NCBI GenBank assembly: GCA_944363835.1
Contig: CALVVJ010000001.1
Location: 1-56,056 of the forward strand
Source: an uncultured Bacilli bacterium
GTDB lineage: Bacteria; Bacillota_I; Bacilli_A; RF39; UBA660
Length of the DNA stretch: 56,056 nt
Direction: 5' to 3'
Position numbers and translations under genes: made by a program. Below are positions 21-50,048 of the stretch, in pieces. Every line of letters begins with the position of its first letter. The stretch's first letter is position 1. A model generated the notes under the pieces. It searched no databases. It was not told the origin of the DNA and saw nothing but the letters and a program-made list of their open reading frames with translations.

Positions 21-439
21 TGTTGGAGGGGAGTAATATTGTTAATGTTAAACAATTATTGAATGATGAAACAAGAGATTACATTCTTATAATTAAAGAA
101 GCTGGTAAATTTTATCGTGCTTATGATATTGATGCACTCATTATTAATATGTTAATTGGTTATCAAGTTACCATGGGACCAAAAATAGGCTTTCCCGACA
201 ATGCTTTGTCTAAAGTAATAAATAGACTAGAAGAAAATAAAATTTCATATCGTTCTATAGTAAAAGGACAAATTGAAAAAGAATATAATTATAAAAAACT
301 AAATCAATACAATAAATTTGCAAGCATTGCTAGAAAAACTGCAGATTTAAACAATCGACTAGATTTAATTGTAAAGAAAGTTAAAAAAGCAGATGATGAA
401 AAAATATCTGAAATTATTGAATATTTAGAAAATGTTTAA
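20..439 (+). CDS. MutS domain I-like small protein (MSL-type DGR accessory); the 5' end may be truncated by the contig edge
   Basis: The segment DYILIIKEAGKFYRAYDIDALIINMLIGYQVTMGPKIGFPDNALSKVINRLEENKISY follows the MutS mismatch-binding domain I pattern (vlfr.GdFYElfgeDA....L.i.lt....ipmaGvP.h.l..yi.kLv..G.kV). It overlaps the next ORF by 8 nt, which suggests an operon. The start is created by the poly-G artefact. Confidence 0.6.
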   Translation: MLEGSNIVNVKQLLNDETRDYILIIKEAGKFYRAYDIDALIINMLIGYQVTMGPKIGFPDNALSKVINRLEENKISYRSIVKGQIEKEYNYKKLNQYNKFASIARKTADLNNRLDLIVKKVKKADDEKISEIIEYLENV

Positions 440-788
440 AATTGTTGGTAATGATTTTAACATTCTAAATAAATATAAAATATTTATTATAGAATTGGAT
501 AATTTAATCGAAAATATACCTCGTAAAGATTACTTTTATAAAGATAAAATAAGAAAAGTATCAAATTACATTTTAGAATTGATTCTAAAATGTAATTATG
601 AAACTGATAATTCTAATATTAATTATTATGTAACTAATATTAAAGGAAGTATTGCTTATTTAGACTTTTTACTAGATAGGTTATATGATATGAAATATAT
701 TAATGAAAAGAATCTTTATAAAATAACTTTAAAGTTAATTGAAATAAATAAAATGGTAATAGGATGGTTAAATAATAAATGCAAGTGA
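432..788 (+). CDS. avd: Avd (accessory variability determinant), four-helix-bundle protein
   Basis: The protein is 118 aa and its ORF overlaps the RT start by 10 nt. Its pattern IPRKDYFYKDKIRKVSNYILELI ... GSIAYLDFLLDRL..KYINEKN...EINKMVIGWL matches the Avd / 23S-rRNA-IVS four-helix-bundle family layout. Confidence 0.75.
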   Translation: MFKIVGNDFNILNKYKIFIIELDNLIENIPRKDYFYKDKIRKVSNYILELILKCNYETDNSNINYYVTNIKGSIAYLDFLLDRLYDMKYINEKNLYKITLKLIEINKMVIGWLNNKCK

Positions 789-1843
789 ATTTAAGTGATT
801 TAAAACTAGTTTATGAACAAGAAATAAGAAAGAATGTTAAAAATAGAAAAAAGATATTTAAGTTTGAAACTCAAAAACTAGAATATCTTTTAGATATAAA
901 AAGAATATTAGAAAATAATTTATATGATGGTGGAAGATATAATATATTTCTAATATATAAACCAAAACTAAGGGTGGTGATGAGTCAAAGTATTTATGAT
1001 AAAGTAATAAATCATTATGTATCAAGATTTATACTTATACCTAAATTAAGTAAATATTTAAATAATAGAAATTGTGCAACAAGAAAAAATATGGGAATTG
1101 ATTATGCCATAAAATTATTTAAGAAAGATATTGAAAGTTTTAAAAAGTATAAAGAATTTTACTTTTTAAAACTAGATATTTCTAAGTTCTTTTATAGCAT
1201 CGATCATAACGTTTTATTAAATCTTATAAAAGAAGATTTAACAAGTGAAGAATATGATTTAGTTAAAGTAATACTTGATAGTACAAATAAACCATATATA
1301 AATAAAATAATAAGTAATTTTGAAAATAAGTTAGGTATAACTTTACCAAAATATGAATATAATAAAGGCTTACCAATTGGTAACCAATCATCACAATTTC
1401 TAGCCATATTTTACTTAGCAAAATTACAACATTTCATGATACATAATTTACATTTGAAGTTTGTCAATTATATGGACGATTATGTAATCATCCATCAAGA
1501 CAAAGTATATTTAAAGAAATGTTTAGATATTATTACTAGTAAATTATCTAATGAATATAATTTGTTAGTAAATAAAAATAAAACTTATATATCATCATCT
1601 AAAAATGGTATACCATTTTTAGGATATAATTGTAAAGCTATAAATAATAAAACAATAATTAGATTAAAGAGTAATAGTAAGAATAATATTAAAAAAGGTA
1701 TTAAAAGAACTAAGTATTTATTTACTAACAATTTAATAAATTTTGATAAATTATTTAGTAGTATAGAAAACTATAAGCATAGTTATCCATATACTACAGC
1801 TAGTGATGCCTATAATATTTTTAATAGATATTGGGGTGGGTAA
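779..1843 (+). CDS. DGR reverse transcriptase
   Basis: RT motifs are present: FFYSIDH, LPIGNQSSQFLA (the DGR-specific I/LGxxxSQ motif 4, nt 1376-1396), YMDD (nt 1469-1480), NKNKT and IPFLGY. The TR starts 9 nt after the stop codon. Confidence 0.93.
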   Translation: MQVNLSDLKLVYEQEIRKNVKNRKKIFKFETQKLEYLLDIKRILENNLYDGGRYNIFLIYKPKLRVVMSQSIYDKVINHYVSRFILIPKLSKYLNNRNCATRKNMGIDYAIKLFKKDIESFKKYKEFYFLKLDISKFFYSIDHNVLLNLIKEDLTSEEYDLVKVILDSTNKPYINKIISNFENKLGITLPKYEYNKGLPIGNQSSQFLAIFYLAKLQHFMIHNLHLKFVNYMDDYVIIHQDKVYLKKCLDIITSKLSNEYNLLVNKNKTYISSSKNGIPFLGYNCKAINNKTIIRLKSNSKNNIKKGIKRTKYLFTNNLINFDKLFSSIENYKHSYPYTTASDAYNIFNRYWGG

Positions 1844-1851
1844 TTCTTATG

Positions 1852-1946
1852 TAACTCCGAACTCATCGAACTCGAACAATGTGTTCAACGTGAACAACAA
1901 CGGCAACTTGAACAACAACAACGCGAACAACGGCAATTCTGCCCGG
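1852..1946 (+). repeat. DGR template repeat (TR)
   Basis: This 95-bp segment is 81/95 identical to 3323-3417. All 14 differences lie at TR adenines. It is rich in AAC (16 AAY codons in the VR frame) and is locally much more GC-rich than its surroundings. Confidence 0.93.
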
Positions 1947-2047
1947 GAGAGCCCTAAATGTTTGATGTTTAATTGGTTAAGGCTAGTTAAGAATAAGCAT
2001 TAAGGACATGAATTATCCAAGAGTATAACTCTAAATAAGTGATAGAT

Positions 2048-2069
2048 GGAAAAGTCTACGGACTTTTCC
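2048..2069 (+). other. Stable hairpin with a cUACGg tetraloop in the non-coding spacer 3' of TR
   Basis: The arm ggaaaagtc (2048-2056) pairs with gacttttcc (2061-2069), enclosing the loop tacg. The flanks gatag / ctatc can extend the helix. It sits in the 150-nt non-coding segment 1947-2096. Confidence 0.5.
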
Positions 2070-2096
2070 TAGAACTATCACAGATAAAGGAATGCT

Positions 2097-2387
2097 ATGA
2101 ATGAAAGAGTAAACATATTAAGAAAATTATATCCAAATTATCTAATATTAGTAAAACATAAAGATAAAATAAAATTTGTGGGTATTGATAAAATAATTGT
2201 AGATACATTTGGATTAAAGAAACTAAAAAATGTTAATAAATTATTATTAGATAATTTGGATATAAAAATATTAGAAGAATATGACAATAACTTATATGAA
2301 AAACACTACATAAAAATAAAATTATTAAAAATAGTTAATATACTAAAGGAAGGGCTAAAAGATGAAAAAAAGATTAATAATTATTAG
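2097..2387 (+). CDS. Small DGR-embedded protein, weakly similar to the N-terminal part of ORF 20-439 (degenerate MutS-I-like?)
   Basis: The protein is 96 aa and its ORF overlaps the target gene start by 26 nt. By eye, LYPNYLILVKHKDKIKFVGIDKIIVDTFG aligns with RDYILIIKEAGKFYRAYDIDALIINMLIG of the first ORF. The GxFY core is not conserved. Confidence 0.45.
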   Translation: MNERVNILRKLYPNYLILVKHKDKIKFVGIDKIIVDTFGLKKLKNVNKLLLDNLDIKILEEYDNNLYEKHYIKIKLLKIVNILKEGLKDEKKINNY

Positions 2388-3501
2388 TATTGTAATAGTT
2401 GTAATATTTATTAGTATTATAGTCATGGGCTATAATACTAATAGTAATAAAACTTTTACTCAAGATGGAGTAACTTATGCATTAACGCTTGATGGAGCAA
2501 GTACTAATTCGTTTCCATCTAAAGGAATGTACCGAGCAGATGTTACTTGTGAAGGTGCTACAGGAACATGGCTTTATGATGAGTGGCAACTGGCTATTGA
2601 AGATATTACAAGTGATAATATAACTTGTGATATTGATTTTACAACTATTTCTCAAACTAACCTCAATAGTTATATTATGAATCTTAGTGGTAGTGAGCAA
2701 GGCACAGGACAAGTGGTTAATGAAAATGGATATCGCTATGAAGGCAAGAATCCAAATAATTATGTATGGTTCAATAATGAATTGTGGAGAATCATCGGGG
2801 TATTTGATGAAAACTCACATGGACAATCTGGCCAAAATCTAGTAAAGATAATTAGAAATGATTCCATAGGTGGATTAGCTTGGCACAAGTCAAATACGAA
2901 TGATTGGACAGTATCAAGTTTAATGAATTTGTTAAATGGAGCATATTTGAATAGTGAAAACGGTACTGGTGGAGAATATTGTTATGGATATTCAACAACA
3001 GTTCCTGCAGGAAATTGTGATTATACAGAATCTGGAATAAATGATACATATAGACCAATGATAGAAAATGTAACTTGGTATTTGGGAGGATATTCAAGTA
3101 CAAGTGCAACGGCAGAAGCATTCTATGGGTATGAAAGAGGAGATACAGTATATAGTGGAAGACCAACAAGTACTACAGGGTATATAGGCCTTATGTATCC
3201 AAGTGATTATGGATATAGTGTACTAGCTAGTTCATGTGCAAGAACAACAAATTTAGGTTCATATAGTAATTCAACATGTGCAGGACAAAGCTGGATGTAT
3301 GGGCAAGGCTATGAATGGACAATTACTCCGTACTCGTCGCGCTCGAACGGTGTGTTCATCGTGAACTACTACGGCAACTTGAACAGCAACAACGCGTTCA
3401 GCGGCAATTCTGCCCGGCCTGTCTTGTATCTAGACTCTTCTGTCTATGTAATTGACGGAAATGGATCTCAAAGTGATCCATACATAATAGGAATGGGATA
3501 A
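2362..3501 (+). CDS. DGR target (variable) protein, N-terminally membrane-anchored extracellular protein
   Basis: It has an N-terminal signal anchor (MKKRLIIISIVIVVIFISIIVMGY). The VR (3323-3417) encodes TPYSSRSNGVFIVNYYGNLNSNNAFSGNSAR near the C-terminus. The tail is ARPVLYLD...GNGSQSDPYIIGMG. Confidence 0.9.
   Translation: MKKRLIIISIVIVVIFISIIVMGYNTNSNKTFTQDGVTYALTLDGASTNSFPSKGMYRADVTCEGATGTWLYDEWQLAIEDITSDNITCDIDFTTISQTNLNSYIMNLSGSEQGTGQVVNENGYRYEGKNPNNYVWFNNELWRIIGVFDENSHGQSGQNLVKIIRNDSIGGLAWHKSNTNDWTVSSLMNLLNGAYLNSENGTGGEYCYGYSTTVPAGNCDYTESGINDTYRPMIENVTWYLGGYSSTSATAEAFYGYERGDTVYSGRPTSTTGYIGLMYPSDYGYSVLASSCARTTNLGSYSNSTCAGQSWMYGQGYEWTITPYSSRSNGVFIVNYYGNLNSNNAFSGNSARPVLYLDSSVYVIDGNGSQSDPYIIGMG
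3323..3417 (+). repeat. DGR variable repeat (VR)
   Basis: This is the counterpart of TR 1852-1946, at an offset of 1471 nt. Nine TR AAY codons are recoded here (Y, R, G, I, Y, Y, S, F, S). The 3' end cggcaattctgcccgg is identical in both copies, like an IMH (initiation of mutagenic homing) sequence. Confidence 0.93.
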
Positions 3502-8042: not shown

Positions 8043-8052
8043 AGAATTTGAT

Positions 8053-8095
8053 AGTAAAACTGCCAAACAATGTTGGCAGTTTTACTATTTTTTTA
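8053..8095 (+). terminator. Rho-independent terminator
   Basis: A 14-bp stem agtaaaactgccaa / ttggcagttttact is followed by a T-run. Confidence 0.7.
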
Positions 8096-8130
8096 TCTTA
8101 TAGGAAATTGCATTATTTAGTAAAAATCAA

Positions 8131-8159
8131 TTGACATACATACGTTTGTTTGTTATAAT
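8131..8159 (+). promoter_or_regulatory. Consensus sigma-A type promoter inside the miniature element left end
   Basis: TTGACA (8131-8136), a 17-nt spacer, then TATAAT (8154-8159) preceded by TGt (extended -10). Confidence 0.6.
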
Positions 8160-8247
8160 TGGTTTATCAACTAAAGGGGGGAATAGAATATAGTTGAAAT
8201 AATAAGAAAAAATATGTATTAATTGAGTGTTATAATAATGGAACATA

Positions 8248-8357
8248 TAGTAGGGTGGCGACCATCCGAAACTGGTCTATGGAGAGTTCGAAGGACTCTG
8301 TGAAGTAGAAATGCCTTGTAGTGATGCAAGGATGCCAAACTTGTTTGGCTTTTGTTC
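8248..8357 (+). ncRNA. Orphan omega-RNA (reRNA)-like scaffold without an adjacent tnpB
   Basis: It is near-identical to 46085-46195, which lies directly 3' of tnpB. Three hairpins are retained, with structure-preserving substitutions relative to copy A. Confidence 0.6.
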
Positions 8358-8571
8358 ATATAGTGATGTAATTATATATTAAAAAATATGAATTACATAT
8401 CCAGAATTTTATGAAGAAAGAGATAGTTTTAAAGGTGTATTTAGAAAGAGTAGTATAATGGATAAAGATATACAAAGTGGTCAAGCTAGTGGTGCAGTCT
8501 AAAAAAAATTAACTTTTTTAATTCTTCGACACAGTTTGACAAATTATTTATTTTCTTTGTGGTAATATAAC

Positions 8572-8591: not shown

Positions 8592-9542
8592 ATGTCTATA
8601 TCAGTAGTTAGTGATAAGCCCAAATTTCTAACAGGCTCTGATGATCGTGTCTTTAAAACACTAGTTAATAGTGGTGAAAAAGGAAAAATCATTTTGGAAG
8701 CAATATTAAAAACTGTTTTTGAAGAGACAGTTGAAGTACTTGAGTTTTTATCAGTAGAACAACCATTAGAAAAAGTAACCGAAAAGAAAAAGACATTAGA
8801 TTGTTTAGTAAAAGTGAAAGATAAATATGTCAATGTAGAGATAAATCTAAATGATTATGATATTGCTAAAGCAGTTAGAAATTTTGCATATTTATGTAGC
8901 TTCTATAGTCAAAACACTAGAAAAGGGCAAACTTATGATACCGAAACTTTATGTGTCCAAGTAAATATAAATTTTGGTTATTCCCCATATAATAGAAGTG
9001 ATAAAATAGTGACTAAAGCATATATGCAAGATGAAGATGGTGTTATTATTGATAATTTTGCTATTTGGAATATGTATGTAGAAAACATCAGACGTTTATG
9101 CTATAATAATTCCAAGGAAAGGGATAAATACCGCTATATATTAATGCTTGATGAAGATAAAGATAATTTAGAATTATTCTATCCAAGTGATGATATAGTA
9201 AGTATTTATAAGGGTGAATTAATGCGACTTAATAGTGATGCTGATTTTGTTTGGGATATAACTGAAGAAGAAGATGCTCAAAAACTATTTAATACTAGAA
9301 TGTATTTAGCTGAGAAAAAGGGCCTGGAAAAAGGAATGGCTCAAGGAATCGCTCAAGGAATTGAGCAAGGAATTGAACAAGGAATTGAGCAAGGAATTGA
9401 ACAAGGAATTGAGCAAAAAAATATTGATGTTATTAAAAACATGCTTAGTCTAAATACTTCTATTGAAGATATTGCTAAAGTTGTTGAATTGAGTGTTGAT
9501 GAAGTAAGAAAAATAATTGTTGCAAATAATTTGGCAAATTAA
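8592..9542 (+). CDS. Rpn-family recombination-promoting nuclease / PD-(D/E)XK putative transposase
   Basis: The core LDCLVKVKDKYVNVEINLN resembles the PD-(D/E)XK D...E.Q/N block. The C-terminal G-x-x-Q tetrapeptide repeats are typical of the family. Confidence 0.75.
   Translation: MSISVVSDKPKFLTGSDDRVFKTLVNSGEKGKIILEAILKTVFEETVEVLEFLSVEQPLEKVTEKKKTLDCLVKVKDKYVNVEINLNDYDIAKAVRNFAYLCSFYSQNTRKGQTYDTETLCVQVNINFGYSPYNRSDKIVTKAYMQDEDGVIIDNFAIWNMYVENIRRLCYNNSKERDKYRYILMLDEDKDNLELFYPSDDIVSIYKGELMRLNSDADFVWDITEEEDAQKLFNTRMYLAEKKGLEKGMAQGIAQGIEQGIEQGIEQGIEQGIEQKNIDVIKNMLSLNTSIEDIAKVVELSVDEVRKIIVANNLAN
9333..9416 (+). repeat. Seven tandem 12-bp repeats encoding (G-I/M-A/E-Q)x7
   Basis: The units are ggaatggctcaa, ggaatcgctcaa, then ggaattga(g/a)caa x5, all in frame within the Rpn-like CDS. 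Confidence 0.95.
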
Positions 9543-32946: not shown

Positions 32947-34851
32947 ATGCGTGAGTTTACAGAACAAGAACTAGTTAGAAGAAAAAAACTAGACAATATT
33001 AGAGAATTAGGAATTGACCCTTTCGGTCATAAATATGAAGTAACTGATTTCTCTTTAGATATTAAAGAAAAATATAAAGGTAAATCTCATGAAGAATTAG
33101 AAAATATGCAAGCAACAGTAAGTGTTGCTGGTAGAATAATGTTTATTCGGAAGATGGGAAAAGCCAGTTTCTTTTCTATCAAAGATAAACTAGGAAGTAT
33201 TCAAATATATATATCAATTAATGATGTAGGGGAAGAAACATATAATCTTTTTAAGACAGCTGACATCGGAGATATTGTGGGTATTAAAGGTACAGTTATG
33301 GTTACCCAAACTGGAGAAATAACGATTAAATGTAAGGAATATACTCATTTAGTTAAAGCTTTAAAACCACTTCCAGAAAAATATCATGGTTTGAGTGATG
33401 TTGAAGAAAGATTTAGAAGACGTTATGTCGATTTAATCATGAACGATGATGCAAGACGTGTTGCTTTTGCTCGTCCAAAGATTATACGTTCTATCCAACA
33501 TTATCTAGATAGTAGAGGTTATGTTGAAGTTGAAACCCCAATTCTTGGAACAATCCTTGGAGGAGCTGCTGCCAGACCTTTTATAACCCATCATAATGCT
33601 CAAAATATTGATATGTATTTACGTATTGCTACGGAACTACCTTTAAAACGTTTATTAGTTGGAGGTATGGATGCAGTTTACGAAATTGGGAGGATTTTTA
33701 GAAACGAAGGTATGGACAGAAAACATAATCCTGAGTTTACAACTATCGAATTATACAAAGCATTCTCTGATTTAGAGGGTATGATGGACGTTGCTGAAGG
33801 TATATTTAGTACATGTGCTATGGAATTAAATGGTACCTATGAAGTAGATTTTCTAGGTCATCATATCAATTTAGCACCAGGATTCAGAAGAGCTCATATG
33901 GTCGATTTAATAAAAGAAAAAACTGGTATCGATTTCTTCCAAGACATGAGTTTTGAAGATGCCAAAAAATTAGCTGAAGAACATGGTATTGAAGTCGAAG
34001 AACACTTTGGCTATGGTCATATTGTTAATGCTTTCTTCGAAAAATATGTTGAAGATACAATCGTTGATCCTACTTTTGTTTATGGTCATCCAATTGAAAT
34101 TAGTCCATTAGCTAAAAAAGATTCAAAAGATCCAAGATTTACTCAAAGATTTGAGCTTTTTATCGCCGGTTCGGAATATGGAAATGCTTTTACAGAATTA
34201 AATGATCCAATTGATCAATATGAACGATTTGAAAATCAATTAAAAGAAAAAGATTTAGGAAATGACGAAGCTAATGAAATGGATTTAGACTTTGTAGAAG
34301 CCCTAGAATATGGTATGCCTCCAGCTGGTGGTATGGGTATTGGAATTGACCGTTTGGTAATGTTACTAACTGGTAGTGAAACTATTAGAGAAGTAATTTT
34401 ATTCCCAACAATGAAACCATTAGATAAGACTGCTCCTTCTAAAATTGCTCCAGTTACTCCTGAAATTTCTAAAATTGACTTTTCAAATGTAGAAATTGAA
34501 CCACTATTTAAAGATACTATCGATTTTGAAACATTCCAAAAATCTGATTTTAGGGCAGTTAAAGTTAAAGAATGTAGTGCAGTATCAGGTTCTAAAAAAT
34601 TATTGAAATTTGTTTTAGATGATGGTAGTGGTGTAGATAGAATAATATTAAGTGGTATTCATGATACATATGAACCAGAAGAATTAGTGGGTAAAACCCT
34701 AATAGCTATCACTAATTTAGAAACTCGTAAAATTATGGGAATCGACTCTTGTGGCATGATTATTAGTGCAATTCACCACGAAAATGGTGTTGAAAAACTT
34801 CATCTTCTAATGGTAGATGACGCTATTCCTGCTGGAGCAAAATTATATTAA
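32947..34851 (+). CDS. lysS: Lysine--tRNA ligase (class II) fused to a C-terminal Trbp111/EMAPII-like tRNA-binding domain
   Basis: LysRS blocks are present (FRRRYVDL, FRNEGMDRKHNPEFTTIE, GGMGIGIDRLVMLL). An extra ~140 aa follows: DFRAVKVKECSAVSGSKKLLKFVLDDGSG.DRIILSGIHDTYEPEELVGKTLIAITNLETRKIMGIDSCGMIISA. This matches the MetRS / PheT / CsaA tRNA-binding OB fold. Confidence 0.93.
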   Translation: MREFTEQELVRRKKLDNIRELGIDPFGHKYEVTDFSLDIKEKYKGKSHEELENMQATVSVAGRIMFIRKMGKASFFSIKDKLGSIQIYISINDVGEETYNLFKTADIGDIVGIKGTVMVTQTGEITIKCKEYTHLVKALKPLPEKYHGLSDVEERFRRRYVDLIMNDDARRVAFARPKIIRSIQHYLDSRGYVEVETPILGTILGGAAARPFITHHNAQNIDMYLRIATELPLKRLLVGGMDAVYEIGRIFRNEGMDRKHNPEFTTIELYKAFSDLEGMMDVAEGIFSTCAMELNGTYEVDFLGHHINLAPGFRRAHMVDLIKEKTGIDFFQDMSFEDAKKLAEEHGIEVEEHFGYGHIVNAFFEKYVEDTIVDPTFVYGHPIEISPLAKKDSKDPRFTQRFELFIAGSEYGNAFTELNDPIDQYERFENQLKEKDLGNDEANEMDLDFVEALEYGMPPAGGMGIGIDRLVMLLTGSETIREVILFPTMKPLDKTAPSKIAPVTPEISKIDFSNVEIEPLFKDTIDFETFQKSDFRAVKVKECSAVSGSKKLLKFVLDDGSGVDRIILSGIHDTYEPEELVGKTLIAITNLETRKIMGIDSCGMIISAIHHENGVEKLHLLMVDDAIPAGAKLY

Positions 34852-34860
34852 TGAAAAAAG

Positions 34861-34893
34861 GAATTCTATTTCATTCGATAGAATTCTTTTTTT
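34861..34893 (+). terminator. Rho-independent terminator of lysS
   Basis: The hairpin gaattctat-ttcattcg-atagaattc is followed by a T-run. Confidence 0.7.
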
Positions 34894-34946
34894 AGTCTTG
34901 TATAAAATTTCTTTAATGTTATAATTAAAATAAGGTAGGTGTAGTA

Positions 34947-35669
34947 ATGAAAAAGATAATTATATTAATATTTGGCATTTTTTTAATTAGTGGCTGTAGT
35001 TGTAGTAAAGATGAAAATACCTTAGTAATGGCTACAGAAGCAGGATTCGCTCCATACGAATATTATGAAAATAATGAAATAGTTGGTGTAGATGTCGATA
35101 TAGCCAAAGAAATAGCAGCTGCAATGGGAAAAGAACTAGTAATTAAAGATGTTGCTTTTGATTCAATAATTAACGAAGTAAAAAGTGGTAAAGCAGACTT
35201 TGGTGCTGCAGGAATTAGTTACAGCGAAGAAAGAGCTGAAGAAGTAGACTTTACCATAAACTATACAACTTCTAAACAAATTGTAATAGTTAAAGAAGAT
35301 AGTAATATTACAACTAATGATTTAGATAATTTAAAAATTGCTGTTCAACTTGGTAGTGTTGGTGATACTTTTGTTACGGAAAATTATCCAAATGCGCAAA
35401 TAACTCGTCAAAAGAAGTATTTGGCAGCTATTCAGGACCTGTTAACTGATAAAGTAGATTGTGTAGTTATGGATGAATTGCCGGCTATAGAAATGCTTAA
35501 GAATAATCCAGGTCTTAAGATATTAGATAAAGAACTATTTACAGATAGTTATGGTATGATAGTTAAAAAAGGGAATACTGAATTATTAAATGCGATTAAT
35601 GAAGTGTTAAAAAAATTAGTTGAAGAAGGAAAGATAGAAGAATTTGTTATAAATCATTCTAAAGGGTAA
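34947..35669 (+). CDS. Polar amino-acid ABC transporter substrate-binding lipoprotein
   Basis: It has a lipobox (LISGCS) and an SBP family 3 pattern (LVMATEAGFAPYEY, VDFT.NY). Confidence 0.85.
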   Translation: MKKIIILIFGIFLISGCSCSKDENTLVMATEAGFAPYEYYENNEIVGVDVDIAKEIAAAMGKELVIKDVAFDSIINEVKSGKADFGAAGISYSEERAEEVDFTINYTTSKQIVIVKEDSNITTNDLDNLKIAVQLGSVGDTFVTENYPNAQITRQKKYLAAIQDLLTDKVDCVVMDELPAIEMLKNNPGLKILDKELFTDSYGMIVKKGNTELLNAINEVLKKLVEEGKIEEFVINHSKG

Positions 35670-44800: not shown

Positions 44801-44820
44801 TTATGTAGAATTCTACATAA
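44801..44820. repeat. Perfect 20-bp palindrome abutting the IS left end
   Basis: The half ttatgtagaa is followed by its exact reverse complement ttctacataa. Confidence 0.9.
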
Positions 44821-44858
44821 TTATCTTATAGGAAACTACTTTAATTAACAAAAAACAA

Positions 44859-44887
44859 TTGACACACATACATTTGTTTGTTATAAT
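44859..44887 (+). promoter_or_regulatory. Consensus promoter in the IS left end driving tnpB
   Basis: TTGACA (44859-44864), a 17-nt spacer, then TATAAT (44882-44887) with TGt immediately upstream. Confidence 0.6.
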
Positions 44888-44915
44888 TTATTCATAGTTC
44901 AGGGGGAATGATACT

Positions 44916-46064
44916 ATGGATAAAATATTAAAAGGATATGTTTTTAGATTATATCCAACAGATAAACAAAAAGAATTAATTAATAAAACTATTGGATGTA
45001 CTAGATTTATCTATAATCATTTTTTAGATGAGAAAATAAATGATTATAAAGAAACAGGTAAATCTAAGTCTTGTTATGACCAAATAAAAGAATTACCTAG
45101 ATTATGTAAAGAATATCCCTGGCTTAGTGAAGTAGATAGTTGTAGTTTAAGAGCATCGCTATTTAACTTAGAAGATGCTTATAAAAGATTTTTTAATAAG
45201 CAAAATGAAGCGCCAAGATTTAAAAATAAAGATATAGGTAATAGTTATAAGACTAATAATATAAAAAGTGCTTATAAAGATAAGAGTTATGAAAGTATAA
45301 AAGTGGATTTCAAAAATAAAATAATAACATTACCAAAATTAAAAGAAGTAAAATTTAGAGGATATAGAAATAAAACGAATTTTATAGGTAATATAAAAAG
45401 TGCAGTTATAAGAAGACAAGCAAACAAATATTATGTAAGTGTGTTAGTAGAAGAACCACTAATATTACCTGAATTTATACCAAGAAGTATAGTAGGACTA
45501 GATCTTGGAATAAAAGATATAATTATCACAAGTTATAATGAAAAAATAGAGAATAGTTTATCTTCATTAGAAGTAAATAAAAGAATAAAAGGATTACAAA
45601 AGAGGCTTTCAAGATGTAAATCAGGAAGTAAAAATAGATATAAGATAAAATTAAAATTACAAAGAGCATATAGAAAGTTAAAAAACATTCGTAAATATTT
45701 AATACATGATGTAACCAATAAACTAGTTAAAGAAAATGATATCATAGTAATGGAAGATTTAAATATCAAAGGTATGTACCAACTAAATTCAATAGCCAAA
45801 TCTCTAACTAACATTCCTTTGGCTGAAATAAAACGAGTCTTAGAGTATAAATGCAAGTGGCAAAATAATAAATTACTTACAATAAATAGATTTTATCCAA
45901 GTAGCCAAACATGCTCAGTGTGTGGATATCAAAATAAGAAAGTAAAGAATTTAGCTATAAGAAGTTGGGAATGTCCAAAGTGTGGTTCATTACATGACCG
46001 TGATATAAATGCAAGTATAAATATAATGTTTGAGGGTTTAAAAATGTATGTAAATAGTTTATAA
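44916..46064 (+). CDS. tnpB: TnpB (RNA-guided RuvC-like nuclease, IS605 OrfB family)
   Basis: The N-terminus YVFRLYPT is typical. The RuvC triad is present: VGLDLGIKD, IVMEDLNIKGM and HDRDINASINI. It has a zinc ribbon (CSVCGY...CPKCG). It is 382 aa and appears intact. Confidence 0.92.
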   Translation: MDKILKGYVFRLYPTDKQKELINKTIGCTRFIYNHFLDEKINDYKETGKSKSCYDQIKELPRLCKEYPWLSEVDSCSLRASLFNLEDAYKRFFNKQNEAPRFKNKDIGNSYKTNNIKSAYKDKSYESIKVDFKNKIITLPKLKEVKFRGYRNKTNFIGNIKSAVIRRQANKYYVSVLVEEPLILPEFIPRSIVGLDLGIKDIIITSYNEKIENSLSSLEVNKRIKGLQKRLSRCKSGSKNRYKIKLKLQRAYRKLKNIRKYLIHDVTNKLVKENDIIVMEDLNIKGMYQLNSIAKSLTNIPLAEIKRVLEYKCKWQNNKLLTINRFYPSSQTCSVCGYQNKKVKNLAIRSWECPKCGSLHDRDINASINIMFEGLKMYVNSL

Positions 46065-46084
46065 TATAAATAAGAGAGCAAATT

Positions 46085-46195
46085 TAGTAGGGTGGCGACC
46101 ATCCGAAATTGGTCTATGGAGAGTCCAAAGGACTCTGTGAAGTAGAAATGCCTTGTAGTGATGCAAGGATAGTCAAACTTGTTTGACTTTTGTTC
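46085..46195 (+). ncRNA. omega-RNA (reRNA) scaffold at the IS right end
   Basis: It lies directly 3' of tnpB. Its hairpins are gggtgg-cga-ccatcc, gagtcc-aaa-ggactc, ccttg-tagtgatg-caagg and agtcaaa-cttg-tttgact. It is conserved in two other copies, with compensatory changes. Confidence 0.7.
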
Positions 46196-46208
46196 TTATA
46201 ATAAACGT

Positions 46209-46919
46209 ATGAAAAGTATTCAAGCAATTAAACAAAATATTACTAAATTTAATAAAAAGTGCGATGAACTAGACACATCATTATTAAATTACCTTAATTC
46301 CCAAAATTTATCTTTATTAGATTTTTGTAATCTTATAGGTTTAGATATAACCCTTCTAAATGATATAGCCTTAAAAGAATTGCAAAATCTTCTAACGGAT
46401 AAAAGTACCAGGATATTTTATAATTCGGGAATGACTAGTTTATCACAAGATGAAATCAGTATATATTCATCTAATTTACAAACTAACATTGGTTTTTTAA
46501 ATGATAAAGTAAAATTAACTTGGGATAATAGCACTCAAAATATGGAATTTCAAAATTATGATAGTGAATTTATGGGCACCAGAAAAAATGGCGAAATTTT
46601 AGAAACAATTCATTTTAGTAGCCACTTAGTTATCGACTCTAAAAAAGCCCAAGACCGTATTTTATCTTTAAAATATCCCTTAGAACATGCTGCTTTAAAA
46701 ATAAAATATACTACATATAAAAAGAATGGTGAAGTTTTAAACGACCAATCTTTTCAAATAACTATTAATAATGCGCTACTGTATAGTGACTTAAGAAATA
46801 TTTTTCGAATACTTTATAACTTTAATTATACTTTAGCAGTAACCATTCTAAAACTATATCCGGCATCCTTAAAAATTACTAGTGATGAAGTAACAATGAA
46901 TAATTTTCATACTAGATAA
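46209..46919 (+). CDS. Hypothetical protein upstream of the clpC-like gene
   Basis: This is an open frame. The ORF-track start 46179 lies inside the IS right end, so ATG 46209 is preferred. No motifs were recognised. Confidence 0.5.
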   Translation: MKSIQAIKQNITKFNKKCDELDTSLLNYLNSQNLSLLDFCNLIGLDITLLNDIALKELQNLLTDKSTRIFYNSGMTSLSQDEISIYSSNLQTNIGFLNDKVKLTWDNSTQNMEFQNYDSEFMGTRKNGEILETIHFSSHLVIDSKKAQDRILSLKYPLEHAALKIKYTTYKKNGEVLNDQSFQITINNALLYSDLRNIFRILYNFNYTLAVTILKLYPASLKITSDEVTMNNFHTR

Positions 46920-46954: not shown

Positions 46955-49051
46955 ATGTTTAATAAATATAGTTTTACTATTAGTAAGATATTTAAAAAAG
47001 CCGAAGAAGAAATGTTTAATCTTCATCATCCTTATGTTGGTAGTGAACACTTATTACTTAGTTTATTAAAGTATGATAAAGAAATTATTCAGATTGCTAC
47101 CAAATATAATTTAACTTATGATAATTTTAAAAAGGAACTTCTTTTAGTTGTAGGAAGTGCCACTAAAGCTAGTTCTTTTGTTTTATATACTCCTCTTTTG
47201 AAAAGAGTTATATCCTTAGCGACTGATGATGCTAAAGAAAGTGGTGAAGAATTAAACTCTAAGCATCTATTTCGAGCCATTATTGAAGAAGGTGAAGGTA
47301 TTGCTATTCGTCTTTTATATGGCATGAATATTAATTTAGATAATTTGTATGATGAATTAAGTATAACTGAACGAAAAAACAATCAAAAACTAGAAATATT
47401 TAAAATAGGAAAAGACTTACAAGACATTATCGACTTTAATGATTTAGTAATAGGAAGAGAAAAAGAACTCAATTTAATTATTGAAACCCTCATTCGTAAA
47501 AATAAGAATAATCCTATCTTAGTTGGAGAAGCTGGAGTAGGTAAGACCGCTATTGTAGAAGAATTAGTACGCCGCATAAAAAGAAAAAATGTTCCTGAAA
47601 GTCTACAAAATAAGCGAATTATTATGTTAGAAATGGGCTCTTTAGTTGCGGGAACTAAATACCGTGGAGAATTTGAAGAAAAATTAACAAAAGTAATAAG
47701 AGAATTAGAAAGTAATCCAGATATTATTTTATTTATTGATGAAATACATACAATTGCTAATGCCGGTGGAGCAGAAGGGGCCATCAATGCCAGTGATATT
47801 TTAAAACCTTACTTAGCTCGGGGCAAAGTAAAAATTATCGGAGCCACTACAACTAATGAATATAATAAATTTATCGCCAAAGATAAAGCTTTAATGCGCC
47901 GTTTTGAATTAATTAAAGTAAGTGAACCAACACTAAGTCAAACTGAAGAAATATTAAATAAAATAAAACCAAGTTTTGAAAAACATTATAATCTTAAAAT
48001 AACTTCTCAAAATATTGTTGATATTGTCAAATTAACTGACAAATATATTATTGATCGTCGTAATCCTGATAAGTCTATCGATATTCTTGATTCTGTTTGT
48101 GCGATGAAAGAAGTAAGTAATACTTCTAATAATATGTTAAGCAAACTACAAATGGAAAAAGAAAGTATCATTGATCAAAAAAAGTTAATGGTCAAGCAAA
48201 ATAATTTCAAAAAAGCCTTAGATTATCATAATGAAGAAATAAAAATAACTAATAGAATTATGCAAGCTAATAAAAAATTAATAAAAATTAGTGAACAAGA
48301 TATTTTAAATTTAATAAGCCGAAAATGTAACATTCCTTTAGGAAATAAAAGAAAAAAATATAAGGATTTAGAAAAACACTTACTTAATAATCTTATTGGC
48401 CAAGATGAAGCTATTAAAAAAATCATTAAAAATATGTTAAATTACTCAGAAGATAAGCCCATATCTTTTCTTCTTACTGGGTCAACTGGTGTTGGTAAGA
48501 CTGAAACTGTAAAATTAATAAGTAAATACTTAAATATAAATTTATTAAGACTAGATATGAGTGAATATAATGAAAGTATTACGGTAAATCGTCTGATAGG
48601 ATCTAGCGCCGGTTATATTGGTTATGATGATGGTGCTATATTTGATAAAATAAAAATGGAACCCTATACTTGTTTATTAGTTGATGAACTAGAAAAAGCT
48701 TCCCCAAGTGTAATTAATCTATTTCTACAAATATTAGATGAAGGATTTATAACTAATGCTAAAGGTGAAAAAATAGACTTTAAGAATACGATGATTTTTA
48801 TGACTAGCAATATAAAAGGCACTCATAGAATAGGTTTTATGAAAAATAGCAACACTTATAATAATGATTTTAGTAAAGAATTTATAGCTAGATTCACAGA
48901 TATTATCGAATATAACGATATAACTGATGATATGTTAGATATCTACTTAAAGAAAAATAATATAAAAGATAAAAATATTATTAAAGACTTTGATGTTCAT
49001 AAAAATGGCTTCCGAGGTTTAAAAAATTATTTAATGAAGACTAAAATTTAA
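46955..49051 (+). CDS. clpC: ClpC-like AAA+ ATPase (Clp N-domain plus two AAA modules), short form
   Basis: It has a Clp_N repeat (HPYVGSEHLLLSLL / SKHLFRAIIEEGEGIAIRLL). D1 has Walker A (GEAGVGKTA) and Walker B (ILFIDEIH). D2 has GSTGVGKTE and LLVDELEKA. A candidate ClpP-docking IGF tripeptide is present. It is 698 aa, against about 810 aa for typical ClpC. Confidence 0.85.
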   Translation: MFNKYSFTISKIFKKAEEEMFNLHHPYVGSEHLLLSLLKYDKEIIQIATKYNLTYDNFKKELLLVVGSATKASSFVLYTPLLKRVISLATDDAKESGEELNSKHLFRAIIEEGEGIAIRLLYGMNINLDNLYDELSITERKNNQKLEIFKIGKDLQDIIDFNDLVIGREKELNLIIETLIRKNKNNPILVGEAGVGKTAIVEELVRRIKRKNVPESLQNKRIIMLEMGSLVAGTKYRGEFEEKLTKVIRELESNPDIILFIDEIHTIANAGGAEGAINASDILKPYLARGKVKIIGATTTNEYNKFIAKDKALMRRFELIKVSEPTLSQTEEILNKIKPSFEKHYNLKITSQNIVDIVKLTDKYIIDRRNPDKSIDILDSVCAMKEVSNTSNNMLSKLQMEKESIIDQKKLMVKQNNFKKALDYHNEEIKITNRIMQANKKLIKISEQDILNLISRKCNIPLGNKRKKYKDLEKHLLNNLIGQDEAIKKIIKNMLNYSEDKPISFLLTGSTGVGKTETVKLISKYLNINLLRLDMSEYNESITVNRLIGSSAGYIGYDDGAIFDKIKMEPYTCLLVDELEKASPSVINLFLQILDEGFITNAKGEKIDFKNTMIFMTSNIKGTHRIGFMKNSNTYNNDFSKEFIARFTDIIEYNDITDDMLDIYLKKNNIKDKNIIKDFDVHKNGFRGLKNYLMKTKI

Positions 49052-49779: not shown

Positions 49780-49813
49780 GTAACCGTAATAAAATAGCAT
49801 TACGGTTACTTTC
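49780..49813 (+). terminator. Rho-independent terminator of the NUDIX gene
   Basis: The hairpin gtaaccgtaat-aaaatagc-attacggttac is followed by TTTCTT. Confidence 0.7.
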
Positions 49814-50048
49814 TTATAGAAAATTACTTTAATTAATTCAAAACGGCGCACACATTTGTTCGATGCGATTAATTTATCAACTAAAGGGGATGAAAAAATA
49901 TAGTTGAGATACTTAATTGTTTAAGTAATAATTGTTAACTTGATAAAAAATTTATAAACAATAGAATAAAAATATTAGGTTGGCGACCATCCGAAGTTGG
50001 CACCTTGTAGTGATGCAAGGCGCCAAACTTGTTTGGCTTTTGTTCTTA
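49810..50048 (+). mobile_element. Decayed tnpB-less miniature IS605-family derivative (copy C) with a truncated omega-RNA-like right end (49977-50045)
   Basis: Its left end (tttcttatagaaaattactttaattaa...tatcaactaaagggg) and right end (taggttggcgaccatccgaag...ccttgtagtgatgcaagg.gccaaacttgtttggcttttgttc) match copies A and B. The promoter boxes are mutated and the middle hairpin is deleted. Confidence 0.6.

Follow-up and report, generated by a model that had tools for sequence, protein, structure and literature searches.

A tnpB-less, multi-copy mini-element with a conserved omega-RNA scaffold in uncultured gut Bacilli

Does a guide RNA that is separated from its nuclease gene serve the host, serve the element that carries it, or serve nothing at all? 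The question is raised by a short segment in the genome of an uncultured Bacilli bacterium (GTDB lineage Bacteria; Bacillota_I; Bacilli_A; RF39; UBA660). The segment lies within positions 1 to 56,056 of contig CALVVJ010000001.1 (GenBank assembly GCA_944363835.1, forward strand), a stretch of 56,056 nucleotides that was analysed as a whole and is referred to here as the window. The segment, which we call copy B, occupies 8097(±2)-8357, a length of ~261-265 bp, and combines a promoter with the scaffold of an omega-RNA. Two relatives are present in the window: copy A, a full element carrying tnpB, with its left end from 44825 and its right end to 46195, and copy C at 49813-50045. A preliminary description of the same DNA had presented copy B as a candidate orphan guide RNA. 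We find that copy B is no one-off but belongs to a mobile family with many copies. In its anatomy it is a deletion derivative, non-autonomous and tnpB-less, of an ISDra2-like IS200/IS605 element, comparable to the palindrome-associated transposable elements (PATEs). We consider it rather likely that its omega-RNA would serve the retention of the element itself through TnpB acting in trans.

The kinship of the three copies is evident from the core 17-mer GGTGGCGACCATCCGAA, which occurs three times in the window at one mismatch or fewer, against 0.01 occurrences expected by chance. Copy B shares both of its ends with copy A. Identity is 84% at the left end (LE; 8093-8167 against 44821-44895), 96% over 89 nt of the right end (RE; 8245-8333 against 46082-46170) and 89% over the last 27 nt (8334-8360 against 46172-46198). 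The near identity of the RE to the omega-RNA region 3' of tnpB had thus been described correctly, as had the absence of a protein gene between the two ends, the only open reading frames (ORFs) overlapping copy B being mechanical ones of at most 46 aa. Concerning the right boundary, homology across the family stops at TTTTGTTC, which places the end of copy B at 8357, and beyond this point the sequences of about 45 copies are unrelated. The flank, and with it a guide, would therefore begin at 8358; the earlier proposal of a guide starting at 8358-8361 holds in that the guide would correspond to the flank, and its start is now refined. The left boundary, at ~8097-8098 with an uncertainty of 1-2 nt, lies directly behind a T-run that is part of the terminator (8050-8089) of the upstream gene. 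Terminal inverted repeats are absent, as the LE begins with CTTATAGGAA, which shows no relation to GAACAAAAGC, the RE end read as its reverse complement, and no target-site duplication could be read in the flanks of 17 family copies. The RE contains a hairpin at 8334-8349, 8 nt from the element end, and the LE folds no better than shuffled sequences (z = +0.2).

The scaffold was judged against copies from other genomes. A search with an exact scaffold 18-mer in contigs representing one genome per species gave 60 stretches (individual loci carry the prefix L below), and 47 of these were family members. A covariance model (R1) comprising 24 copies from other genomes, and no window sequences, was used to search the window with filters off. 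Copy A matched over the full length of the model with 147 bits, and copy B, also over the full length (model positions 1-126), with 127.3 bits (E = 3e-40). Copy C gave 79 bits with 34 model positions absent, and the next-best match in the window (12.4 bits) was noise.

Six helices, a closing stem (P1) and five hairpins, are supported by 29 family copies, in which 39 pairs were assessed. In P1, GAACAAAA pairs with UUUUGUUC, corresponding to 8241-8248 with 8350-8357 in copy B. Standard pairs were found in 93.7% of the cells, compared with 34-49% (about 45%) after sliding the partners. Compensatory, doubly changed cells numbered 53 against 21 in shuffles, and 0/500 shuffles reached 53. Two forms of one hairpin, GAGUCC/GGACUC and GGACUC/GAGUCC, are fully compensated. 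Taking into account the invariant G-U pairs, the structure was assigned to the + strand. In copy A, the scaffold begins 12 nt past the stop codon of tnpB and folds with z = -3.2 to -4.3. The scaffold of copy B is a complete, structurally conserved guide-RNA scaffold. When eight family copies that retain both ends and lack tnpB (hereafter minis) are compared, identity is 36% in the left flank, climbs to 87.6% in the LE and 92.6% in the promoter, is 78.1% in the middle and 90.8% in the scaffold, and drops to 32% in the right flank. Within the scaffold, a k-turn/E-loop module (8276-8311 in copy B, 46113-46148 in copy A) resembles RAGATH-18. The corresponding Rfam model (RF03064) gave 30.7 bits for copy B and 32.2 bits for copy A, with E = 3-5e-4 in small search spaces, below its gathering score of 44.9; no match reached the gathering threshold across the whole window.

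The promoter of copy B is as perfect as had been claimed. It consists of TTGACA (8131-8136), a 17-nt spacer and TATAAT (8154-8159) with an extended TG at 8151-8152, a score of 12/12, and its predicted start site is at ~8166. This is the tnpB promoter inherited from the parent element, and it is kept in 9/11 minis as well as in the full-length copies. Between its -10 box and the scaffold start at 8241 lie 81 nt of relic leader without a credible ORF: a 5'UTR with a GGGGGG ribosome-binding relic leads to an inactivated tnpB start codon (ATA at 8190), and in the middle of the minis a TTAAAA-like short repeat marks the fusion of the first ~20 nt of tnpB with its last ~30 nt. The leader is the least conserved segment of the minis. 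As copy B sits directly behind the terminator of the upstream gene, and is thereby insulated from upstream transcription, it would rely on its own promoter. A second -10-like box (TGnTATAAT; TGTTATAAT) is present at 8228-8236, 5-12 nt upstream of the scaffold. Its counterpart in copy A, TATAAT at 46058-46063, overlaps the tnpB stop codon, and TATAAT/TATAAA-like boxes stand 5-12 nt before the scaffold in most family copies. Judging from these boxes, the guide RNA may have a dedicated promoter of its own.

The TnpB that could act on such an RNA is encoded 37 kb away in copy A, and the statement in the preliminary description that it is intact was borne out. The protein is full length and matches PF12323, PF01385 and PF07282 (HTH_OrfB_IS605, OrfB_IS605 and Cas12f1-like TNB domains). 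The RuvC motifs GLD196LG, ME280DLN and HDRD363 are present, together with the two CxxC pairs of a zinc finger. Residues 6-375 align with ISDra2 TnpB structures in the PDB (E = 1.4e-68), and the IS607-type TnpB of ISFba1 (PDB 8IAZ) is more distant (4.6e-38). With NCBIfam models, the scores were 383 bits for IS200_TnpB (NF038281), under its strict cut-off of 425, 153 bits for IS607_TnpB (cut-off 350) and 293 bits for NF040570 (cut-off 100). By these matches the TnpB of the window is an intact protein of the IS200/IS605, ISDra2-like type. Concerning other loci encoding an identical TnpB, the exact protein has no database record.

Pfam revealed no Y1_Tnp among the small ORFs of the window. A tblastn search of the window and the fetched family loci for tnpA was likewise negative, a weak negative, obtained with a single IS200 TnpA sequence as query. 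With no tnpA adjoining it and none found in the window, copy A would be a tnpB-only element, itself non-autonomous. Ahead of copy A, a 20-nt palindrome, TATGTAGAATTCTACATAAT, is found at 44802-44821, and this left-end variant also occurs in L030, L031 and L042. On either side of the palindrome stand direct repeats of 5-6 nt that match the usual start of the left end, and the variant is found at four loci and in two left-end subtypes. The palindrome may represent a lost TnpA hairpin or else a very small nested insertion. The features of the three copies are collected in Table 1.

Table 1. Positions of the features of copies A, B and C and of their immediate surroundings in the window.
Feature	Positions	Strand	Basis
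Intrinsic terminator of upstream AAA_14/DUF4143 gene, with T-run	8050..8096	+	hairpin 8050-8089; terminator scan
Left end (LE) of copy B, begins CTTATAGGAAATTGC	8097..8130	+	homologous to LE of copy A and of full-length copies elsewhere
Sigma-70 promoter of copy B, extended -10 TG	8131..8159	+	12/12 match
Relic leader of copy B	8160..8240	+	compared with 44888-44935 and 46030-46064
Right end of copy B = omega-RNA scaffold	8241..8357	+	covariance model R1, covariation
Predicted guide segment ATATAGTGATGTAATTATAT	8358..8377	+	flanking DNA directly 3' of element end
Flank hairpin, host sequence outside element	8366..8398	+	folding
Left end and promoter of copy A	44825..44915	+	TTGACA 44859-44864, TATAAT 44882-44887
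tnpB, 382 aa, IS200/IS605 (ISDra2-like) type	44916..46064	+	Pfam, NCBIfam, PDB
Omega-RNA scaffold and right end of copy A	46076..46195	+	R1 147 bits
Copy C, degraded mini, sister subtype	49813..50045	+	R1 79 bits

The preliminary description had asked how many such cassettes exist beside full tnpB copies. Across related gut Bacilli, at least 14 minis with both ends, from ~10 metagenome-assembled genomes (MAGs), were found against 11 tnpB-bearing copies, and minis and full copies occur together in at least four MAGs. The hosts are nearly all uncultured gut Bacilli MAGs, Candidatus (Ca.) Onthocola stercoravium and a 'Tenericutes' MAG. Nine further loci have the same ~265-bp layout as copy B, with the LE ~235 nt before the scaffold core and no tnpB. 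The subtypes to which copies B and C belong share the same deletion breakpoints. Those of a third group, the D-type minis (L021, L038, L048 and L050, to which a degraded copy in L042 is related), are different, which indicates an independent deletion and hence two deletion types in the family. B-type copies are present at three unrelated loci: that of the window (with L071 and L089), L009 and L023. The latter two had looked like possible orthologues of copy B because BLAST alignments ran into the flank, a reading rejected on alignment. At L027, the RE runs straight into TCTTATAGGAAAG, a left-end fragment, forming a head-to-tail junction of two elements.

Copy C had been cited as an illustration of decay. 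Its features agree with this: a 13-nt patch stands in place of the -35 box, the -10 box carries mutations, and a 36-nt scaffold deletion has removed helices P3/P4, the central hairpin. However, copy C did not arise by decay of copy B, as it represents a sister subtype, the commoner one elsewhere. The patch, together with 14 nt of left end (49824-49850), is a perfect 27-nt match to the antisense of a ClpC-like gene (47895-47921, minus strand) 1.9 kb away. Because orthologues show the sequence of the ClpC-like gene to be ancestral, the patch resembles the product of a templated repair that killed the promoter.

The guide of copy B would be the first 16-20 nt of the 3' flank, from 8358. The hairpin that had been noted in this flank does fold (-8.2 kcal/mol, z = -2.5); it is present at the orthologous loci L071 and L089 and absent beside the other B-type copies. 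The preliminary description had suggested a search for matches to the guide next to a transposon-adjacent motif (TAM), and this gave chance-level matches only. Elsewhere in the window there was no match at fewer than three mismatches, and seven at three mismatches compared with 3.4 expected. In IMG/VR, six 18-mer matches were found, none of which extended or carried a T-rich 5' motif. A search for the element itself in viral contigs yielded 11 matches to the 18-mer, all in unrelated coding sequences.

As a candidate TAM, guessed from its T-rich character, we note TTTAT(C) at 8092-8097, which closes the terminator T-run of the upstream gene. LE junctions across the family share a T-run followed by (A/G)T(C), the frame being ambiguous by 1-2 nt. 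Two frames are possible, TTTAT|CTTATAGG and TTATC|TTATAGG. The first is favoured by its similarity to the TTGAT of ISDra2, and the second by a comparison of an unoccupied orthologous site of the window (~34875) with L013, L051 and L056. This site lies in the intergenic region 34850-34947. At the orthologous position, L013 has a full element, L051 a right end and L056 a remnant in decay, and in the window the site reads T-run and AGTCTTG, similar to the usual left junction. A 'TC' core dinucleotide shared by both junctions was also considered; it fits the minis but fails at the left ends of L011, L013 and L055.

How could an element without a gene be retained? In the explanation that we favour, an internal deletion would have taken out nearly the whole ORF of a parent element, and the resulting mini would then have spread as a family. 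Rightward transcription from the promoter would produce an RNA consisting of the ~80-nt relic leader, the 117-nt scaffold and then the flank. TnpB from a full-length copy, such as that encoded at 44916-46064, would bind this transcript and trim it to an omega-RNA, with the adjoining 16-20 nt of flank as its guide. If the mini were excised by a transposase, the rejoined empty site, a T-rich TAM followed by the flank, would be cut, and repair of the break from the sister chromosome still carrying the element would retain the mini. From such a cycle of cutting and repair it would follow that the RNA serves the element rather than the host. Loading in trans with the 3' flank as guide, which the preliminary description had proposed, seems to us the most reasonable mechanism. 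Its suggestion of a regulatory RNA fared less well: the guide is ordinary flank with no off-site match in the window or IMG/VR, and a host regulatory or defence role of the copy B RNA is not supported.

The persistence of orphan copies was followed in related genomes. One relative, 91.8% identical over 6.5 kb, carries the orthologous mini with three changes in the whole element, none in the 115-nt scaffold and intact promoter boxes; its guide differs by one change, G8363T. In the D-type orphan found in four species-level MAGs, 11 scaffold columns are variable, of which none breaks a formed pair and two are changes from G-C to G-U. The preliminary description had named neutral decay of orphan copies across strains as an observation that would refute its reading. 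In this small sample, the scaffold shows no neutral decay in orthologous and sister orphans. A gapped pattern combining the left and right flanks of copy B detected no empty site in the metagenome collection, and the left-flank anchor alone found one contig, which was occupied. Contigs with the exact upstream or downstream protein contain the mini or break inside it, and none shows an empty site. Copy B is fixed in every strain recovered, with neither a strain-specific insertion nor an empty site found.

Several observations weigh against the proposed retention cycle. Neither the window nor ~0.5 Mb of related loci yielded a Y1 or serine tnpA, and as no empty site was found either, excision, and hence a need for homing, is no more than putative in this lineage. 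Folding against shuffles revealed no convincing TnpA-type hairpin in the left end of copy B. In a terminator scan, the last scaffold hairpin (P6) with TTTTGTTC, at 8334-8357, resembles an intrinsic terminator placed just ahead of the guide, so that many transcripts may be guide-less, although copy A shares this feature. The closing stem P1 of copy B contains two non-standard pairs, the only weakness of its scaffold. Retention of the promoter needs no selection, since the deletion breakpoints fall inside the ORF. The preliminary description had taken the selective retention of promoter and scaffold as a sign of function, an argument that is not supported, because such breakpoints keep the non-coding parts by default and mobility needs the same ends. 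Ca. Onthocola stercoravium has four minis and no tnpB among the matches, in an incomplete MAG searched with an exact pattern. Finally, divergence within 500 bp on either side of copy B is also low (~2-4%). The unchanged scaffold is therefore only weakly significant, suggestive of constraint, and gene conversion between copies could also keep a scaffold intact.

Copy B might then be an inert fossil, a young or recently homogenised deletion remnant that is inactive and has stayed intact through youth or gene conversion. We regard this as the foremost alternative, possible but clearly on the unlikely side. Minis do decay, as seen in copy C and in the degraded copies at L001, L042, L056, L057 and L059. 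The lack of a transposase in the window and related loci, the lack of an empty site and the fixation of copy B in all recovered strains are in line with inactivity, and the low divergence extends across the whole 7.5-8.5 kb neighbourhood rather than the element alone. On the other hand, a fossil would not lead us to expect a scaffold without change in a 92%-identical relative, variation that avoids pair breakage in the D-type orphan, a promoter and scaffold more conserved than the middle segment, or the presence of the B subtype at three loci.

The arrangement of the copies raises another alternative, that of a mobile promoter or leader cassette, whose main effect would be exerted in cis: the promoter would drive or de-regulate the downstream gene, with the scaffold as 5' leader. 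Every family copy lies directly 3' of a different hairpin and T-run and reads in the direction of the next gene, giving a uniform order of terminator, element and gene. Right ends are often ~3-30 nt from the ribosome-binding site or ATG of that gene (L021, L024, L029, L033, L048 and L053). The D-type mini of L048 (4496-4940; also in L021, L038 and L050) consists of promoter, 15-codon relic ORF and scaffold. A T-box leader (RF00230, 92.9 bits) comes immediately before it and a small membrane ORF with leuS after it, an arrangement kept in four species-level MAGs. The strong promoter of this mini could bypass the T-box riboswitch. As an account of copy B, however, we find the cassette improbable. 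The next + strand ORF is 235 nt away, with a hairpin and a promoter-like site of its own ahead of it, and the terminator-like P6 hairpin would restrict read-through. A T-rich target motif behind terminators would produce the same orientation bias, and the conservation of RNA structure is left unexplained. At L020, the right end abuts TGAAAAG, and the ATG of the gene orthologous to that at 46209 of the window has consequently been lost.

A broader view would be that scattered gene-less cassettes of promoter and scaffold form a dispersed guide set for a single TnpB, kept by selection on the RNA, with some co-opted, for example the T-box/leuS copy. Long-lived orphans with structure-preserving variation hint at selection at the RNA level. 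We give this view little credence, but if true, such a set would be an intermediate between a one-transposon-one-guide and a multi-guide, CRISPR-like arrangement, or a new TnpB-dependent cis-regulator. Least credible of all, to the point of being almost negligible, is a domesticated orphan omega-RNA with a regulatory or defensive task, sending TnpB to some remote site on the chromosome, a plasmid or a phage: the intact promoter and scaffold and the availability of several guides to one TnpB in the genome merely permit it, whereas the guide is only local flank without a second window match at fewer than three mismatches, none of the IMG/VR 18-mer matches can be extended or has a T-rich motif on its 5' side, the TnpB retains its nuclease motifs unlike TldR-type regulators, and the flanks of other family copies are unrelated.

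As for the surroundings, copy B is preceded by genes for an SNF2/SWIM helicase and an AAA_14/DUF4143 ATPase. The downstream gene (8592-9542) has no Pfam match; it contains at least six 12-nt tandem repeats (9315-9416, GIAQ/GIEQ-like units), and its C-terminus gave a weak PHROG 'transposase' match. Together, the helicase, the ATPase and these features of the downstream gene make the neighbourhood resemble a mobile or defence island. Elsewhere in the window, a diversity-generating retroelement is present at 432-3501, with a bAvd-like ORF (432-788, weak) and a reverse transcriptase (779-1843, RVT_1). Its template repeat (1854-1946) and variable repeat (3325-3417, at the end of the ORF 2362-3501) are 86% identical, with the differences at A positions of the template.

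Among known systems, copy B compares best with the PATEs, which are gene-less derivatives of IS200/IS605 (IS1341-type) elements whose core deletion is repeat-mediated (Dyall-Smith et al. 2011, PMC3119063). According to Meers et al. 2023 (PMC10055086), omega-RNAs are often encoded in PATEs and have to be used by TnpB in trans. Like these elements, copy B is too short for a transposase or nuclease, has the ends of a tnpB element, lacks terminal inverted repeats and a target duplication, arose with a core deletion at a short repeat, belongs to a group with multiple copies at different loci and carries a guide-RNA scaffold at its right end. It differs in coming from gut Bacilli, whereas known PATEs are from haloarchaea or Geobacillus, in keeping the consensus promoter of the parent and relic 5' and 3' tnpB codons, and in having no evident left-end palindrome.

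The comparison with ISDra2/ISYmu1-type systems (PDB 8H1J, 8BF8 and 8EXA) rests on the TnpB alignment, the RuvC and zinc-finger motifs, the right-end scaffold, the guide outside the element and the T-rich target side. Differences are that the scaffold of the window starts past the stop codon with no ORF overlap, that copy B is without tnpB, and that the TAM of ISDra2 is TTGAT, against a TTTAT(C)-like guess here.

With the RAGATH-18 reRNA of ISFba1, the scaffold shares the internal-loop signature UGGAG ... UGAAG ... AGAAA, an RNA separate from the coding sequence, and a layout of 5' hairpin, RAGATH-like module, two 3' hairpins and guide. RAGATH-18 is the proven TnpB-binding core of IS607 reRNAs (Ren et al. 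2024, PMC11061315), and a published survey reported it with IS607 TnpBs only. In our case the score stays below gathering because the apical ~38 nt are absent, the TnpB matches the IS200/IS605 model far better than that of IS607, and the boundary shows no AG-rich TAM of the kind typical of that family. An assignment to RAGATH-18 was therefore rejected, as neither score nor protein type agrees with its definition, and an IS607/serine-recombinase reading prompted by the match was rejected on protein type. A RAGATH-18-like k-turn/E-loop module is thus not confined to IS607-type TnpBs.

TldRs, nuclease-dead TnpB-derived RNA-guided transcription factors (Wiegand et al., PMC10705468), illustrate that a TnpB-family guide RNA could in principle serve a purpose other than homing. 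Here, in contrast, the nuclease motifs are intact, the guide is a transposon flank, the RNA belongs to a mobile repeat family, and no off-site match of the guide was found in the window or IMG/VR.

Copy B fits the published homing model, an idea that is not new and would not surprise a specialist, and the current model of TnpB systems is left unchanged by this locus. For annotation, such repeats break assemblies and put strong promoters right behind terminators, in one case behind a T-box riboswitch. The compact, covariation-defined scaffold of ~117 nt, lying apart from the ORF of a 382-aa ISDra2-like TnpB, may interest engineers of small genome editors. The locus provides a clean and well-delimited natural case, from uncultured gut Bacilli, of the modularity proposed for TnpB systems, in which guide-RNA cassettes survive and spread without the nuclease.

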